Source of the DNA: Escherichia phage usur
Reading direction: 5' to 3' (one strand)
Sequence record: MN850624.1
Length of the DNA stretch: 41,906 bases
Shown: positions 18,594 to 41,906 of the stretch, one piece after another
Position numbering within the stretch: the first letter of the stretch is position 1
How the letters are laid out: each line of letters begins with the position of its first letter
Notes under the pieces: generated by a model
Databases searched by the model: none
Told to the model about the DNA's origin: nothing
What the model saw: only the letters and a program-made list of their open reading frames with translations
Translations under genes and position numbers: made by a program

Positions 18594-20159
18594 TTAAATC
18601 TGAGCGACGTTCGGCGCTACATCGACTGCGCCCGGCTGTACGCCTGCGGCAGCGGCTGCTGCTCTGTCGATTTGCTGACCTTCATTTGCGAGGTCTTGCG
18701 CTGACTTACGATAGTCATCAAGCGCGACGCCGTTGGAAGCGAAGATAACCTCAATGACCTTCTGCGGGTCAATGACGTTGGCAACGCCGTTAATGTTTTG
18801 GACAGCAACCATTGCTGCCTGCGAATCCGAGAGCGCACGAATAAGCGTCTCAGCTTCGATGCTGCGACCGAGGGCATCCAGACCAGCTTCAACTTGAAGC
18901 GTCAGGATATCGCCCACAATGTCAGGTACGGAGGACTCGTCAATCTCTGCGAGCAAGACGTATGCCAGAGGAATCTGGAGGGTCTTTGCCTGCATTGAGT
19001 ACGGGCCACCCAGCCCACGTTCGGCGCTGGTTGCTACCTGCTGCACTTCGGTTGCGGTGGTACGCTCCGAGTCACGGAACTCACCAGTGTACATGAACGC
19101 CTGCGCGAGTCGCTGCACAATCTGGTTAATTTCGTCACGGGCCTGTTGAACTTTCTGGTAATCCCCGACCTCAAGACCAGACAGCGTGGTGCCATTCTGG
19201 AGAGGTACGACCTGCCCGGTCTGCGCGGATTCAATGTCATCGACGTTGCCGCCAGAACCAGTCAGCATCCACAGGACACGCAGCGCCTCTTGCATGTACA
19301 GAGCTGAGTGCTCAGACAGCATCGACAGACGTGCGAAATCCCCAGCGTGGTCTTCGACAATCCCGCGACCATAATGCTCGCCAGACTTCAAAGACCACAC
19401 TGGGAAAATCCAAGGGCAGACTTTTTCAGGGTAGTAATCTTTACCGGGGGTGTAGACACAGCCTTGGTAGTTGCCCACCTGCTGCGTTACTTCATAGCCA
19501 TACAGCCCACTGTCCTTCCGAACTCGGAGGACGCGAGTGTACAGCCACACACGTTTGTTGCCACCACAGCGGAAGCCCTTGGCGTTCAGCATGTCCTGAA
19601 ACGCTTTGTCGAGGGAATCCCACTGGATGCGTTCTTTGACCACGGCGTCCGTAACAACGCCACGACCGTCGCGCTGCACCACGAAGGATTCCAGCCCGTA
19701 CACTCGGTACGTTCCAGTTTCCATATCGCGGTACAGCGCGGCGTTACCAGTGACTGCTTGTTGGGCAATGGTCATTAACAGGTCAGCGTAGCCGCCATTC
19801 TCTTTGGCTTTGTCTACGATGCCCTTTTCAATAGTGATGAGTGCCTGATTAACCTTAGACATTTGCTGCCGCTGTTGGTCAGACACCTTATCGAGTTTCA
19901 GCTTTACGAACCGGGCTGATGCCGGGAACAGGAACTCACCCAGTCGAGCGACGAGGTTGTTAACGAGCAGAGCGCCGACAGATTGGTAGTCACGAGTAAT
20001 CTGCTGGCGGTTCATGTCGTCTACTTCGGCGCGGTCGTATTCACTGACCAGCTTGGCCAACGTGTAACGACTGTACTCACGAGCCTTGGTGACTACGTTA
20101 CTGTCCCGGTACTTTTGCCAGAGCGATTCATAGCTGACGTTCTGCGCGTCATATGCCAT
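18594..20159 (-). CDS. portal (head-tail connector) protein
   Basis: 521 aa, size and position match T7 gp8. Confidence 0.85.
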   Translation of the reverse strand: MAYDAQNVSYESLWQKYRDSNVVTKAREYSRYTLAKLVSEYDRAEVDDMNRQQITRDYQSVGALLVNNLVARLGEFLFPASARFVKLKLDKVSDQQRQQMSKVNQALITIEKGIVDKAKENGGYADLLMTIAQQAVTGNAALYRDMETGTYRVYGLESFVVQRDGRGVVTDAVVKERIQWDSLDKAFQDMLNAKGFRCGGNKRVWLYTRVLRVRKDSGLYGYEVTQQVGNYQGCVYTPGKDYYPEKVCPWIFPVWSLKSGEHYGRGIVEDHAGDFARLSMLSEHSALYMQEALRVLWMLTGSGGNVDDIESAQTGQVVPLQNGTTLSGLEVGDYQKVQQARDEINQIVQRLAQAFMYTGEFRDSERTTATEVQQVATSAERGLGGPYSMQAKTLQIPLAYVLLAEIDESSVPDIVGDILTLQVEAGLDALGRSIEAETLIRALSDSQAAMVAVQNINGVANVIDPQKVIEVIFASNGVALDDYRKSAQDLANEGQQIDRAAAAAAGVQPGAVDVAPNVAQI

Positions 20160-20423: not shown

Positions 20424-20842
20424 TACGGTTTCTCCAAATCAATGAAGCGGTACTCCTGAACGTAAGGCCGCACCATGTGGGAGTAACCGCACCAACGCAC
20501 ACCCTCGGAACGGGCCACGTCTTTGAGTACACGGAGGATGACACGCATCACTCCACGGTTTCTGTACTGGGGCCAGACGTATGAGGCCATAACGACCACC
20601 ATCTCGCCCACATGAATATCGAATAACCTGCCGATGTGAGCAACAGCCATGAGGCTGCCGTCATCGTCAGTGATGTAAACGTCAACACAGCCATTGGCCG
20701 TAGCATCGTACATGCTGTCAACGATTACATCGGGAGATAGGTTCGACCATGGCCGCTCGGCTTGGATGCCCTCGGCCACTGCACGGCGAATGTCAATCGG
20801 CATTGTCGTGTGTGATGTATTTCCCATAGTAGTAGCTTTCAT
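20423..20842 (-). CDS. GNAT-family N-acetyltransferase (putative)
   Basis: 'VWPQYRNRGVMRVILRVLKDVARSEG' matches GNAT motif A (R-x-x-G-x-G/A followed by a helix). No clear RBS for any of the N-terminal Met codons, so the start is uncertain. Confidence 0.45.
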   Translation of the reverse strand: MKATTMGNTSHTTMPIDIRRAVAEGIQAERPWSNLSPDVIVDSMYDATANGCVDVYITDDDGSLMAVAHIGRLFDIHVGEMVVVMASYVWPQYRNRGVMRVILRVLKDVARSEGVRWCGYSHMVRPYVQEYRFIDLEKP

Positions 20843-20843
20843 T

Positions 20844-21110
20844 TCAAATCACTCTTTCGCGTATGAAATCCAGCACGTCCTGCTTACCAGCTTCTCTGTT
20901 GATGAGAGGAAGGTTAGTGTCTATGGTTACTGTCCGGCCAACCTTCTCCCATGTACCGAAGTGCTTTTCCAGTAGAGCTAACTGAGCTTTAGTGAACGTT
21001 ACTCTATCTAATGGAGATTCTTTACCCATACAATCCTCTCTGAGTGGCAGCACCCCCGCCACTGACGGGGCTACCGGTAGCGTGATATCTATCACTATAG
21101 TAGCTTTCAT
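20844..21110 (-). CDS. hypothetical protein (start uncertain)
   Basis: 88 aa ORF starting MKATIVID. The internal Met at 21029 has a strong RBS (AGAGAGGATTGT-ATG) and lies downstream of the promoter-like element, so the real product may be 61 aa. Confidence 0.4.
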   Translation of the reverse strand: MKATIVIDITLPVAPSVAGVLPLREDCMGKESPLDRVTFTKAQLALLEKHFGTWEKVGRTVTIDTNLPLINREAGKQDVLDFIRERVI

Positions 21111-21139
21111 AAATAGTCAAAGAATACAGTACCTTATTA
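21088..21139 (-). promoter_or_regulatory. conserved element A, candidate phage-RNAP promoter (late)
   Basis: Minus strand reads TAAGGTACTGTATTCTTTGACTATTTATGAAAGCTACTATAGTGATAG; the core CTACTATAG resembles the T7/SP6/K11 promoter core CACTATAG. Starts at the RNAP stop codon; followed by a GC stem-loop (GCCCCGTCAGTGGCGGGG) and a strong RBS. Confidence 0.4.
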
Positions 21140-23569
21140 ACAGAAGAATTTGGTAGATTCTTTGACAAGATTTATGTCCAAGCTGCCCTTAGCTGGAGCC
21201 TCACGATTATACGCTTTGGCAAGCTGTTGAATTGGGTCATGTTGCTCATACATCTGCACGAACTTTTCACGGATGACTTTGTGCAGTAACCCTGCATGAG
21301 CAGCAGCAACACCGAATGAGTCATGGATGGATACCATGTAAACCCCGTTATTCCACATCTCCCACAGCACGCGCATCATGTGGCTGGCGTCCATGGCGTG
21401 TACGAAATTCGGAGCAATCGCAGCCGCACACTTACGTCCGTCAGGCTTATCCAGATACTCCCTCAGTTTAATCTGATGGACACCCATGAGGTGCAGGTGC
21501 ATCGGGGATTCCTTGGACGCTTGGTACAGGTTCGGCACCCGCAAACCGGATGGTGCAATAATCTCCACGTACTCGCCCATGCTCGCAGCTTCCAGCGCGA
21601 TAGCCTGCAACCATGCCATAAGCTCAGCAGCTTTCGGCACAACGCGAGGGATAGCGTTCCACATGAACTCAGCAATGAACTGCGCACACTCCAGCAGGGT
21701 CTTCCCTTCCGGCAGCTTGACGCGGTTCTCACGCAGGTACAGGCAGTAGTAATCCACCATGCCGTGCCGGGTTGCCCCGTACACGTAGGTCATCACTGGC
21801 TTCTTCGCCATCGCCCGAACAATGCCGATGGACACCAGCCAAGCACCCATTGGCGTCGGCGTGACTGCCTCACTTTCTTCAAGAGCCTGCATCGCCGCTG
21901 CTGCCGTCTTAAGATAGATGTCTGCTTTGCGTCCCACGCTATTGATAAGATTGACAGCAGCACCTCCAACCTCATCTCGTAGCATCGCACTGAGGTGCTG
22001 GAGTCCTGAACATGTAGCGTCCCATTGCGTAACCACTCGGCAGGGATAAGTCTCAGGACTTCCTGAGTCGATAGCTCGAATGAGTTCAACAGAAGCAGCC
22101 CACGCTGAGATAGGGCTATCGGCCTCTGACCAGAACGAATCAAATGCCTCTGGAAGACGGCACGCCTCACGTAATCGGGGGAGTGTTTTGTCCGTCCACG
22201 CTGCCCGGTCTTCGAAGTCTGTGGCGTCGTATCCAAAACAATTCGCAACATGTACCTTGAGCCAGAACAGCCCCTCGTTTCCGAGAGCCACTGGTTCAGC
22301 AAGTTCGAGCAGCGCTCGCACCGCGTCGATGGACTGAGGGTTAAGGGTCGAAGAATAATAAATTCGGCCCCGCGTATCGGCGTAAGTCGGGAGATAAATC
22401 CTATCGTACTGGGCATAGCGCTCGGCCTCTTTGACTGCGCCGTTCAGTGCCAGCATCTGCGACGTGAACTTACGCAACTCATTGTAATACAAGCGAGTCT
22501 TCACCTTGTACTCATGAGCTTCCGCATCCATCTGCTGCTGCATTTCCGGTGGGAACTTGCTGATGTACTGGGCGAAGCTGACGCCTGCCGGGATAGTGAA
22601 TGGGAGCTTAGGCTCACGGGGCGGCACAGGCAGCCCCATAATGCCTGTACGGTTCGTTCGCAGGAACTCCAGTACCATTGGGTTAACTCGGTACGGAACG
22701 CTGCTGAGCATCATACACGGCTCTATAACGGGGGTCGGGTCAACGCCCAGCGCACGATACCCTTTGTGGTTCATGCGACTGATAACCCGGTACATTGCTG
22801 ACTGCCCCGGCGAGTGCCACATACCACTGCGACCGTTCGGAGCAATCTGCGCTGGCGGTACAATAAGCGGTGGGCAGCACATGCCATCGGCACGCGGCAT
22901 ATCCAGCCAGTCATTCATTGTGGCCAGCACATCTTCGTGCAGGGCGAAGTGCGCAGTACCGCGCTGACGGTGGTTGCCGCCGACGCGGATAGTGCAGACC
23001 AGACCAGTTGGCTCAACGCACTGCATCATCAGCTTGCCCATGGTGATGAGCGCACGCTGAGGCAGGATATCAATCTCTACCCCAACATTGGCTGCCGACG
23101 CTTTGGCTTTGTTGTAAGCATGGTTCGCTGACTTGGTGCGTGACTTCTTCACGTCAGCCTTAACCTTCTCCATGTACGCCGCGCCGACTGGCCCTGACTT
23201 CTTCGCACGCTGGTACACCACCTCAGCCATGAGCGCCTTACCCATGTCTTTCAGCAGATTCAGTACCGCCTGCTCCGACGCTGCACCGGACACCGCCATG
23301 CTGAGCGCCAGCGACGAACACGCCTTGACGCCCAGCTCACGCATAAATGTCCGGTACTGCGCACCAGCACCACGGGTCGTTTCATTCAGGAGGTCTTGCA
23401 TCGCAGCTTCAACTTGAGGGAAAGCCTCAACCATCATACGTTGGAGCAACGGCACCGACCCTGCCCGGCCAGCGGCCATGGCATCTTTGATATTGTCCAG
23501 CCAGCCCTCGCGGTGTCTGGCTCGCGCTTCTTCTTCAAGTCGAATCTGCTCAGCAAGTAAGTCCATCAT
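21137..23569 (-). CDS. single-subunit DNA-dependent RNA polymerase (T7-like)
   Basis: 810 aa; '[20 protein letters not shown]' (T7 '[20 protein letters not shown]'), '[14 protein letters not shown]' and 'SIHDSFGV' match T7 RNAP catalytic motifs. Confidence 0.92.
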   Translation of the reverse strand: [810 protein letters not shown]

Positions 23570-35007: not shown

Positions 35008-35030
35008 CAATATAGTAGCTTTCATAATGC
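35008..35030 (-). promoter_or_regulatory. conserved element B, candidate phage-RNAP promoter (middle genes)
   Basis: Minus strand reads ATGAAAGCTACTATATTGGCC, same 15-nt core as element A; 226-bp intergenic gap at the early/DNA-metabolism boundary. Confidence 0.35.
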
Positions 35031-39975: not shown

Positions 39976-40368
39976 TTACGCCTCCACTACCCAAAATTGC
40001 TCACCATCGTAAGTCCAAGCAGTGAACTGCCCGGCTTCCATCTCCGCTTCTGTCTTGCTGACAAACTTGCCAGCAGGCTTGCCCGGATATGGTGAATCCA
40101 TGAAGATTGCATCATTGTCATCGATCACTACCATGATGCAGTCCTGTTCAAAGGCTTTACAGAACAGCTTAACAGCCTGTCTGATTTCGTAGATTCCATC
40201 GACAGGAAAGACCATGCTTAACTCATACGCATTGTCGAATTTGCCTGTCAGTGTGACCGGAATCACTCCGAACATATCCTGCACCGTTCGCAGTGCCTTG
40301 CAATGAAGCGCCAGATTAACACACTCAGCATTGTTCTGGCGGTATGCGCTTGCATAGATACGGTACAT
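39976..40368 (-). CDS. hypothetical protein, first early gene
   Basis: 130 aa; RBS GGAGAAA 6 nt before ATG 40368; first ORF downstream of the tandem sigma70-like promoters. Confidence 0.55.
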   Translation of the reverse strand: MYRIYASAYRQNNAECVNLALHCKALRTVQDMFGVIPVTLTGKFDNAYELSMVFPVDGIYEIRQAVKLFCKAFEQDCIMVVIDDNDAIFMDSPYPGKPAGKFVSKTEAEMEAGQFTAWTYDGEQFWVVEA

Positions 40369-40846: not shown

Positions 40847-40875
40847 ATTACAACACAGTGTATTCAGCTTGTCAA
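40847..40875 (-). promoter_or_regulatory. sigma70-like early promoter P1
   Basis: On the minus strand: TTGACA (40875-40870), 17-nt spacer, TGTAAT (40852-40847), preceded by TGc (extended -10). Confidence 0.5.
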
Positions 40876-40926: not shown

Positions 40927-40955
40927 ATTACAGCATACTCGTTTCATCCTGTCAA
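40927..40955 (-). promoter_or_regulatory. sigma70-like early promoter P2
   Basis: Minus strand: TTGACA (40955-40950), 17-nt spacer, TGcTGTAAT (-10 at 40932-40927). Confidence 0.5.
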
Positions 40956-41063: not shown

Positions 41064-41092
41064 ATTACAGCATAGTGAGCTTGCCTTGTCAA
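41064..41092 (-). promoter_or_regulatory. sigma70-like early promoter P3
   Basis: Minus strand: TTGACA (41092-41087), 17-nt spacer, TGcTGTAAT (-10 at 41069-41064). Confidence 0.5.
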
Positions 41093-41167: not shown

Positions 41168-41197
41168 ATTACAGCACAAAGCGAATCAGACTTGCAA
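41168..41197 (-). promoter_or_regulatory. sigma70-like early promoter P4
   Basis: Minus strand: TTGCAA (41197-41192), 18-nt spacer, TGcTGTAAT (-10 at 41173-41168). Confidence 0.4.
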
Positions 41198-41229
41198 GAA
41201 TTATTTTCACTGAATAGCTCAAATAGTGG

Positions 41230-41330
41230 ATAAGTTACTGTAATCATTAGGAATAAATATTTGATTGAATAGGTTATTGCATAGGATAGATACCGATATC
41301 AGATAGGTTATAAGTTACTGTAATCATTAG
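41230..41330. repeat. two perfect 20-bp direct repeats (TAAGTTACTGTAATCATTAG) 81 bp apart in an AT-rich segment
   Basis: Exact copies at 41230-41249 and 41311-41330; the second copy forms the 5' part of element C. Confidence 0.8.
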
Positions 41331-41358
41331 ATAATTATGAAAGCTACTATAGTGATAT
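41311..41358 (+). promoter_or_regulatory. conserved element C (plus-strand copy of the promoter-like element)
   Basis: Plus strand reads TAAGTTACTGTAATCATTAGATAATTATGAAAGCTACTATAGTGATAT, about 40 of 47 positions identical to element A but in opposite orientation to all genes, pointing into the T-depleted tract. Confidence 0.35.
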
Positions 41359-41374
41359 GTATCGCTAGATACGC

Positions 41375-41860
41375 AGAGCGAGCGCGGCGCAGCCGAAACA
41401 AGCGAGCGCGGAACGGCAACGGATGGAATCCGACAGGATGACAGGCGGCAGCCAGTGAACGCAGTAGGACAGGTGACACAGTAGCAGAGCATGACGCGCA
41501 GAGCTGGCGGCGCAGACAGTAGACCAGCAGACAGGACAGCACCACGGCAGCACCGCCACCACACAGCACCACACGGCGCAGAGCATCACGGCAAAAGAGA
41601 CAGATACCCGCACGACCGAGCGCAGCACGCAGCACCGCACAGCCAGCGCAGAGCGTCCCCATAGGACAGCACCGCACCGCACAGCCAGCAGGACAGCGCA
41701 CAGCACGCCACACGGCAGACGATGAAACGCGACACGCACGAGCTATACCGCACGCAGGCAATCCTCTTGACGCGCCGCGCAGCGCACGCGAGCAAATATC
41801 GCGCACGTCGCGAGGCTAATCCGCGCACACGCTATGGGGGCACGCGCGGTCATTCGGGTC
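41375..41860. other. strand-asymmetric, T-depleted (plus strand) low-complexity tract; candidate genome-terminus region
   Basis: Over ~450 bp the plus strand is almost entirely A/C/G with quasi-repeats (GCGCAGAGC, CAGGACAG, CACAGCCAGC). All three minus-strand frames are open here, as expected for an A-poor strand. Confidence 0.6.
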
Positions 41861-41906
41861 GAGGGAGGCCCACGCACAAATAGTCAATTTTCAAGCCGGG
41901 GTATTG

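Follow-up and report, generated by a model that had tools for sequence, protein, structure and literature searches.

A predicted antisense promoter for the phage RNA polymerase and a U-poor transcript path in the left-end control region of a Bonnellvirus genome

The locus

The sequence analyzed here is that of Escherichia phage usur (record MN850624.1), a stretch of 41,906 nucleotides (nt) that we call the window and whose positions serve as coordinates throughout. Our subject is an AT-rich segment near its right end (41230–41358), in which a preliminary description had noted an exact 20-base-pair (bp) direct repeat and, running on from its second copy, an outward-facing promoter-like element termed element C. 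The 1.2 kilobases (kb) around this segment match 19 phage records at 84–96% identity, and the annotated records among them belong to the genus Bonnellvirus (Autographiviridae; in the newer taxonomy Autoscriptoviridae, Stentvirinae). All long open reading frames (ORFs) of the window lie on the − strand, and in the relatives the sequence of the window's right end continues directly into the endolysin gene at the window start (40–576, −); since the two ends are contiguous there, the window is, judged by its junctions, a complete collapsed genome of this phiKMV-type genus written as the reverse complement. In the relatives the endolysin gene is the last gene and the SAMase gene (39976–40368, −) the first, and the segment falls within the approximately 1.5-kb non-coding region between them, which is the conventional left end. 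The segment is the divergent control region of this end of the Bonnellvirus genome, and in the sections below we describe the antisense promoter that it contains, the elements around it, and the unusual DNA into which this promoter points; the conservation of all left-end elements was read from an alignment of 15 Bonnellvirus genomes.

A predicted antisense promoter and its forward partners

Directly adjoining the second copy of the 20-bp repeat is the 20-mer TTATGAAAGCTACTATAGTG (41335–41354, +), much as the preliminary description had it. The same 20-mer recurs, identical, at 21093–21112 (−), directly after the RNA polymerase (RNAP) gene, and with one base changed at 35008–35027 (−), upstream of the block of genes for primase, helicase, and DNA polymerase, while a weaker fourth promoter-like copy, AAATGAAAGCTACTACTATG at 20825–20844 (−), overlaps a start codon, that of the second gene past the RNAP gene (ATGAAAGCTACT..., encoding M K A T). 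Three copies at zero or one mismatch together with a weaker fourth compare with an expectation of 0 by chance, and the motif is one of about 20 bp that is common to several sites and stands in front of gene blocks. At the site after the RNAP gene the similarity extends well beyond the motif, to 54 nt at 83% (41310–41363 against 21084–21137), which agrees with the approximately 40 matches in 47 nt counted earlier; only the window genome has this longer resemblance to the late promoter, which may have been left by a copying process through which the promoters stay matched to the polymerase.

T7 promoters are characterized by an AT-rich region at −17 to −13, TATA at −4 to −1, and a purine at the start. 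Placed in the T7 register, the motif has an AT-rich stretch at −17 to −14, CTATA at −5 to −1, and G at +1, and a direct reading of TTATGAAAGCTACTATA followed by the start G against the T7 consensus (TAATACGACTCACTATA followed by G) gives agreement at 11 of 18 positions, including all of those from −6 to +1. By this register, transcription from the antisense copy would start at G41352. With all genes on the − strand, a promoter on the + strand points away from every one of them, as had been claimed for element C, and would be read leftward in the conventional orientation. It is kept in place in 12 of the 15 genomes (at most four mismatches), and the other three (smaasur, J8-65, and Lidtsur) have a diverged copy there.

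Co-variation with the RNA polymerase

The evidence that carries the assignment comes from the RNAP itself, a T7-type single-subunit enzyme encoded at 21137–23569 (−). The RNAPs of the compared phages are 76–91% identical to that of the window and are hypervariable in one short segment, at residues ~687–700, where the sequences SPM-HLHLMGVHQ, IALNNINLMGIHG, TMLNNINLMGIHS, TTM-GIKLMGVHA, and AAM-GLNLMGVHG are found. This segment aligns with the T7 stretch ...IQTRLNLMFLGQFRLQ..., which contains the specificity-loop residues R746, N748, R756, and Q758, and it tracks the variants of the promoter motif. Among five Bonnellvirus genomes with four motif variants, the antisense copy agrees in each case with that genome's own forward copies at the specificity bases, which read GCTA in the window, GTGA in forsur, GTGT in altidsur, and GTAA, with CTGT for CTAT just downstream, in J8-65, a variant that Lidtsur shares. 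The weak copy at 20825–20844 takes part as well, its specificity bases shifting with those of the other promoters between genomes and changing encoded residues 3 and 4 as they do so.

The window genome is, moreover, a mosaic. Its RNAP is 99.4% identical to that of Kc261, with GCTA in both phages, and its left-end DNA is nearest to that of forsur (95.6%), where the bases are GTGA; as a Kc261-type polymerase and motif are thus found in forsur-like flanks, the promoter follows the polymerase and not the flanking sequence. The arrangement shows a mosaic exchange in which the promoters have been re-matched to the polymerase. At the level of sequence we regard the identity of the promoter as established, and it is this co-variation with the phage RNAP and the forward promoters that bears out the outward-facing, T7-type promoter of the preliminary description.

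The 20-bp repeat, the AT-rich spacer, and the early promoters

The 20-mer TAAGTTACTGTAATCATTAG occurs exactly twice in the window, on the + strand at 41231–41250 and 41311–41330, and has no match in 100 dinucleotide-preserving shuffles even when three mismatches are allowed; the repeat can be extended to 32 nt at 88% identity (41219–41250 against 41299–41330). The exact repeat described earlier is confirmed, as is the fact of its spacing, but the figure of 81 bp given for it is not, the copies lying 80 bp apart from start to start with 60 bp between them. Copy 1 is found ~35–55 bp upstream of the −35 element of the leftmost early promoter-like site, and copy 2 occupies about −41 to −22 of the antisense promoter. 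The former is recognizable in place in all 15 genomes (at most five mismatches; 15–16 of 20 positions in the J8-65 clade). The latter is present in 12 of the 15, four of which carry the variant form TAAGTTACTGATATCAATAG, and in four relatives it differs from copy 1 at four or more positions; in the J8-65 clade (J8-65, smaasur, and Lidtsur) there is no copy at the promoter and other sequence stands in its place. In LIMEzero, of the sister genus Waewaevirus, the same element (TAAGTGTATGTATT...) lies upstream of the antisense promoter at an equal distance (26 versus 25 nt). The 20-bp element is a conserved upstream module of the control region, with one copy beside each promoter group, and is possibly a protein site.

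The AT-rich spacer between the divergent promoters (41198–41334) has a G+C content of ~27% (0.27 also over 41200–41349, in keeping with the AT-richness first remarked upon) and contains small internal repeats, namely the 32-nt pair and two copies each of ATAGGTTAT and TTTSAYTGAATAG. On its other side, four early promoter-like sites face the genes on the − strand, where 0.02 matches would be expected by chance: TTGACA-N17-TGTAAT at 40847–40875, at 40927–40955, and at 41064–41092, and TTGCAA-N18-TGTAAT at 41168–41197. Their −35 elements are perfect or near-perfect, their spacing is 17–18 bp, and their −10 hexamer, TGTAAT, is preceded by TGn. A consensus scanner rejects these sites on account of the G at position 2 of that hexamer, where A is the near-universal base in sigma-70 promoters; the "putative Pantoea specific promoter" of LIMEzero has the same form, TTGTCA-N17-TGTAAT. 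CTGTAAT is also found inside both 20-bp repeats, on the strand opposite to the hexamers of the early promoters.

It could be argued that the repeats are the essential feature of the region, as the iterons of an origin or as sites for a specific protein, and that the promoter is incidental. The sequence TAAGKNNNTGTAWT has three sites in the window against 0.07 expected, confined to the two repeat copies and one position upstream of the late promoter, and in both genera of the subfamily the element keeps a constant spacing to the antisense promoter, in AT-rich surroundings. An iteron-type origin, taken as at least three regularly spaced direct repeats with a cognate initiator and an adjacent AT-rich unwinding element, is nevertheless not what is found: there are two copies, and one in the J8-65 clade, copy 2 varies at four positions in four genomes, the forward promoter at 35008–35027 (−) is without the element, and no initiator gene is evident in the annotations of the relatives. 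We reject the iteron-type origin as such and regard the wider proposal as quite improbable. Several other candidates were also set aside. A promoter scanner returned no sigma-70 promoter on the + strand in or around the repeats, and the best candidate picked by hand on that strand, GTTATA-N17-GATAAT (3/6 and 5/6), is too weak to claim; a DnaA box, AGTGGATAA (41224–41232), is not conserved in the relatives; and LexA or IHF sites in the repeat amounted, by eye, to half-site or partial matches and were dropped.

The predicted terminal repeat and a pause-like block

The position of the genome end can be predicted from J8-65, the record of which annotates a 259-bp repeat_region at both ends, starting 73 nt past the endolysin stop (TCGACCCGAAGG...) and ending 12 nt before GGGGCTATCTATCTTTTTTCG. 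Carried over through the 15-genome alignment, this homology places one collapsed copy of the direct terminal repeat at approximately 41619–41862 (~245 bp, ±10 nt), with the physical left end predicted near 41862. A polymerase leaving the antisense promoter would hence traverse a unique leader of ~267 nt (41352–41618, +) and then ~244 nt of predicted repeat, and run-off at the predicted left end would yield a transcript of ~511 nt.

Close to the inner repeat boundary, 9–12 nt inside it, all 15 genomes have a conserved block, GGGTATCTGTCTCTTTT (41593–41609, −), that resembles the class II (CJ) pause signal of T7, of which the consensus is ATCTGTT (10.1101/2021.01.11.426313) followed by a run of T. 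The block shares with CJ its location a few nucleotides inside the inner boundary, its gene-sense orientation, and the T's that follow; it differs in that the match is 6/7 in the window clade (ATCTGTC with TCTTTT) and 5/7 in J8-65 (ATCTATC with TTTTTT), neither of them exact, and in the polymerase, which is not that of T7. For T7 RNAP, any base change in the class II signal abolishes termination (10.1101/2021.01.11.426313), and we treat the block as a lead toward a class II pause signal and not as a member of that class. LIMEzero has a similar sequence (GGGGGCTACTCTACCTCTTTTCGC).

The late side of the junction has a feature of its own: between the endolysin stop and the predicted repeat, positions 41895–41906 joined to 1–10 could form a hairpin, GCCGGGG-TATTGCA-CCCACGGC, the stem of which is longer in altidsur, Kc261, and aldrigsur, where paired insertions add a G to one arm and a C to the opposite one. 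It is a candidate for the structure that ends the late operon.

This geometry invites the proposal that the promoter assists terminal-repeat duplication or packaging, leftward transcription or RNA-primed synthesis through the repeat at a concatemer junction causing strand displacement by which the downstream genome would gain its left repeat. The direction and strand of the promoter suit copying of the repeat from its inner side, the predicted inner boundary is ~267 nt away, and a conserved CJ-like motif lies at that boundary as it does in T7, in which transcription and pausing at CJ matter for maturation. Yet T7 manages with rightward promoters only, and the argument is inferential throughout, with repeat boundaries that are predicted for the clade; we consider such a role rather improbable.

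The T-poor tract and its predicted transcript

Downstream of the antisense promoter the DNA is 60–69% G+C and strikingly poor in T on the + strand, which amounts to 7.6% T over 41352–41862 and 4.7% over 41400–41760 against a mean of 22.9% (standard deviation 3.5) for 250-nt windows genome-wide, of which the six lowest in T all lie in this tract. The preliminary description had element C point into a T-depleted tract, which holds for a tract that is T-poor and not T-free, and took the window end for the genome end, which is only approximately right, the physical left end being predicted ~44 nt before it. The T-poverty is retained in 14 of the 14 genomes measured, and relative to the J8-65 clade the tract is 60–62% identical, with many indels and its composition kept. 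A literature search, which was not exhaustive, found no earlier account of an A-poor tract reaching from the start site to the genome end. Depletion of A by single-strand deamination was considered and is unlikely, because C is not depleted along with A.

The RNA predicted from this DNA is correspondingly unusual. Its first 267 nt contain 7.1% U and 63% purines, with G exceeding C. When the + strand is folded as RNA, no other of the 672 windows is as poorly foldable for its G+C content as those at 41376 and 41501 (residuals of +33.5 and +45.4 kcal/mol; standard deviation 8.5), the complementary strand being ordinary, and the predicted 511-nt RNA has a folding z of +1.94 against its own shuffles. 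A rough estimate of the stability of RNA:DNA hybrid against that of DNA duplex gives the first 250–300 nt a preference for the hybrid (z = −2.6), third of 1678 windows.

A coding gene in the tract can be rejected on the grounds that no frame is conserved, the indels being other than multiples of three in 4 of 4 cases against forsur (98% identity) and in 11 of 12 against altidsur. The long − strand ORFs found there exist because this strand lacks A and every stop codon contains A. The window ORF at 41327–41806 (−) has equivalents in forsur, Kc261, ROV85, HHU8, and Lidtsur, where "hypothetical protein" genes have been annotated in the A-poor tract; judging from their sequence, these genes are almost certainly artefacts. 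A search of Rfam with the predicted RNA returned no family at E ≤ 1, and on the + strand there is no terminator-like site closely past the junction and none before the endolysin gene. Two sequence motifs were tried and discarded: CsrA-type GGA is not enriched in the tract (a hand count of ~10 against ~14 expected from base composition), and CTGTC, a possible primase site, is enriched in the window, altidsur, and LUZ19 and is not in J8-65 or LIMEzero, so that it is no common motif of such tracts. As for Chi (GCTGGTGG), the genome has 10 sites against 2.8 expected, all on the − (coding) strand and four of them in the final 4.5 kb of the genome (1485–4536); none of the 10 is in the left-end T-poor tract.

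Comparison with LUZ19 and other phiKMV-like phages

The closest published counterpart of the antisense promoter is found in the phiKMV-like phage LUZ19, in which four phage-specific promoters have been mapped by ONT-cappable-seq (Putzeys et al. 2024, PMC10914365). One of these, P001, is active and antisense in the early region, with transcripts that reach the right end over gp47–gp49; the positions of the LUZ19 motif are shared by 15 other Phikmvvirus species, and the authors suggest that P001 may block elongation into the early genes on the circularized genome (PMC10914365). In the LUZ19 sequence the sole copy of the motif within the first 3 kb is at 751 (−), and the top strand contains 2–9% A over nt 1–700, including the 472-bp repeat. 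The Bonnellvirus promoter has the features of the P001 class, namely the motif of the forward promoters on the non-coding strand, in the leftmost region, and at a position kept genus-wide. The resemblance goes further: in both phages the inverted left-end motif has the terminal repeat on one side and the host early promoters on the other, the promoter set is small (an antisense promoter, a pair just after the RNAP gene, and one further forward promoter), and A is scarce on the top strand all the way from the genome end to the antisense promoter. The differences are that the promoter sequences are unrelated, that the polymerases are distant, with RNAPs of Pseudomonas podoviruses only ~30–32% identical to that of the window, that the repeat is 472 bp as opposed to ~245–259 bp, and that P001 has been mapped experimentally whereas the Bonnellvirus promoter is predicted. 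We conclude that the Bonnellvirus element, as a predicted promoter, belongs to the known class of LUZ19 P001. The terminal promoter firing across the concatemer junction that the preliminary description envisaged is upheld to the extent that the promoter faces outward and has a published counterpart, its Bonnellvirus form remaining a prediction.

LIMEzero has an antisense promoter copy, TATGAAGGCAAGCACTAAGG, at 637–656 (−), exactly where its A-poor tract ends; this copy is unannotated, the record listing two forward phage promoters only. In three genera, Bonnellvirus, Waewaevirus, and Phikmvvirus, the A-poor tract ends exactly at the antisense start site. The arrangement is not universal among phiKMV-like phages, a generalization rejected by KP34, in which the left-end promoter-like match, at 477, is in the forward orientation and A is depleted only mildly, and by Cronobacter phage GAP227, the record of which shows neither an antisense left-end promoter nor an A-poor tract. 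GAP227 does have a reverse promoter-like motif (GAATTGGCACCGCTATAG) elsewhere, just after its RNAP gene at ~19248–19265 (−), where it faces a forward copy ~60 nt away.

Given that LUZ19 P001 transcripts overlap gp47–gp49 (PMC10914365), the Bonnellvirus transcript might be a stable non-coding RNA with a regulatory task, such as controlling the lysis genes in antisense on concatemers or serving in trans as a protein sponge. No + strand terminator precedes the endolysin gene, and a U-poor RNA should, by inference, contain few RNase E sites. The core of the tract is, however, poorly conserved against the J8-65 clade in everything except its composition, the RNA has no Rfam family, GGA is not enriched by the hand count, and the enrichment of CTGTC does not extend to all genera; a regulatory RNA is very unlikely.

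The composition of the tract may also be unrelated to the promoter and may reflect restriction avoidance by the DNA that is injected first, until the SAMase is expressed, an explanation that need not exclude the others. A strand free of A cannot carry targets that require adenine on both strands (Type I and most Type II), and could carry the asymmetric sites of Type III in one orientation only. The tract forms the leading end, the anti-restriction SAMase is encoded by the first gene, leading-region motifs decide Type I sensitivity in other Autographiviridae (PMC12455610), and KP34 is mildly A-poor without an antisense promoter. On the other hand, the depletion stops ~1 kb short of the SAMase gene, so that protection would be partial, the tract boundary coincides exactly with the antisense start site in three genera, and T7 has no such tract. 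We rate this explanation as unlikely.

Comparison with T7 and the question of an origin

The phiOL promoter of T7 is regarded as a secondary replication origin. Like the antisense promoter of the window, it serves the phage RNAP, stands between early promoters (A1–A3 in T7) and the terminal-repeat region, and lies beside an AT-rich stretch and upstream of an anti-restriction gene; unlike it, phiOL fires rightward into the AT-rich stretch, whereas the window promoter fires leftward and has the AT-rich stretch upstream. According to the annotation of NC_001604, phiOL lies at 405, facing rightward, and the host promoter A0 lies at 224, facing leftward. T7 has no A-poor tract, the left end being A-rich in T7 and A-poor in the window. 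A0 resembles the window promoter as a leftward promoter just inside the left end and aimed at the terminal repeat (NC_001604), with the difference that A0 is read by the host RNAP and the window promoter would be read by the phage enzyme.

The promoter-primed origin proposed in the preliminary description on the T7 parallel is accordingly not borne out in its T7 form, the promoter being inverted and the AT-rich spacer lying upstream instead of downstream. A different version can be formulated, in which the antisense RNA stays hybridized to its template as an R-loop of the ColE1 type and primes leftward synthesis, the displaced strand then loading helicase-primase for a rightward fork; under this reading only, the element would resemble ColE1 RNA II and T4 oriF and oriG, at which a promoter drives a persistent RNA:DNA hybrid. 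The phiOL-like placement agrees with it, as do the U-poor, 5′ purine-rich, untranslatable, and (within the genome) least structured RNA, the favorable if rough hybrid-versus-duplex estimate, and a layout kept in three genera. Against these stand the departure from T7 origin anatomy, the fact that leftward priming would meet the end after just ~0.5 kb, and the LUZ19 transcripts, which are long and released. The GC skew of the genome is uninformative as to the origin, because all genes are on one strand. We hold a promoter-primed origin of this kind to be doubtful.

Functional interpretation

We favor the reading in which the left-end control region, with its divergent early and antisense phage-RNAP promoters, forms a cis-acting transcription unit at the genome junction that opposes read-through and opens the terminal repeat, and we put its probability at roughly 55%. 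The AT-rich spacer would separate host-type early promoters, firing into the genes, from a phage-RNAP promoter firing the opposite way. Once made, the phage RNAP would start at G41352 and transcribe the unique leader of ~270 bp and then the terminal repeat of ~245 bp; on unit-length DNA it would reach the physical left end and run off there with an RNA of ~511 nt, and on concatemers it would cross the junction and proceed antisense to the lysis genes, as has been measured for LUZ19 P001. The predicted RNA would be non-coding, U-poor, and unusually unstructured. Acting in cis at the junction, antisense transcription would meet late read-through head-on and insulate the early region. A naked RNA that is poor in U and rich in purines tends to stay paired with its template, and the transcript may for this reason also hold the terminal repeat open as an R-loop, whether for replication priming or for concatemer maturation.

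Several considerations weigh against this transcription unit as we picture it. The start site and the repeat boundaries are drawn by analogy, in a genus known here from sequence; insulation leaves the U-poor composition unexplained, and the conserved, sense-direction CJ-like pause site could already handle read-through. The long transcripts of LUZ19 show that most of the RNA is released and not kept in R-loops. KP34, mildly A-poor though its left-end promoter-like site faces forward, suggests that the composition may be a property of the genome end instead of one tied to the antisense RNA, and the GAP227 record shows neither feature.

A bolder proposal would join the antisense promoter and its U-poor, structure-poor leader into one conserved phiKMV-type device, spanning Bonnellvirus, Waewaevirus, and Phikmvvirus, that lays a persistent hybrid across the terminal repeat for the initiation of replication or the duplication of the repeat. 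Such a device, if real, would be distinct from the T7 origins, with their rightward promoters and AT-rich DNA, and from the CJ pause of that phage. We offer it as a tentative possibility, and a doubtful one.

Significance

The antisense left-end phage-RNAP promoter of phiKMV-like genomes, hitherto mapped by experiment and left unexplained, is here extended, as a prediction, to a distant enterobacterial subfamily. Within Bonnellvirus, the specificity bases of the promoters move with the specificity loop of the polymerase even when the flanks have been exchanged, which provides four natural RNAP–promoter pairs in nearly isogenic backgrounds, and the spurious "hypothetical protein" annotations in several deposited genomes can now be flagged. 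The U-poor transcript predicted in three genera, which in the window is also unusually unstructured, points to a role in cis at the terminal repeat, and the U-poor leader may give a handle on how phiKMV-type phages start replication or duplicate their terminal repeats.

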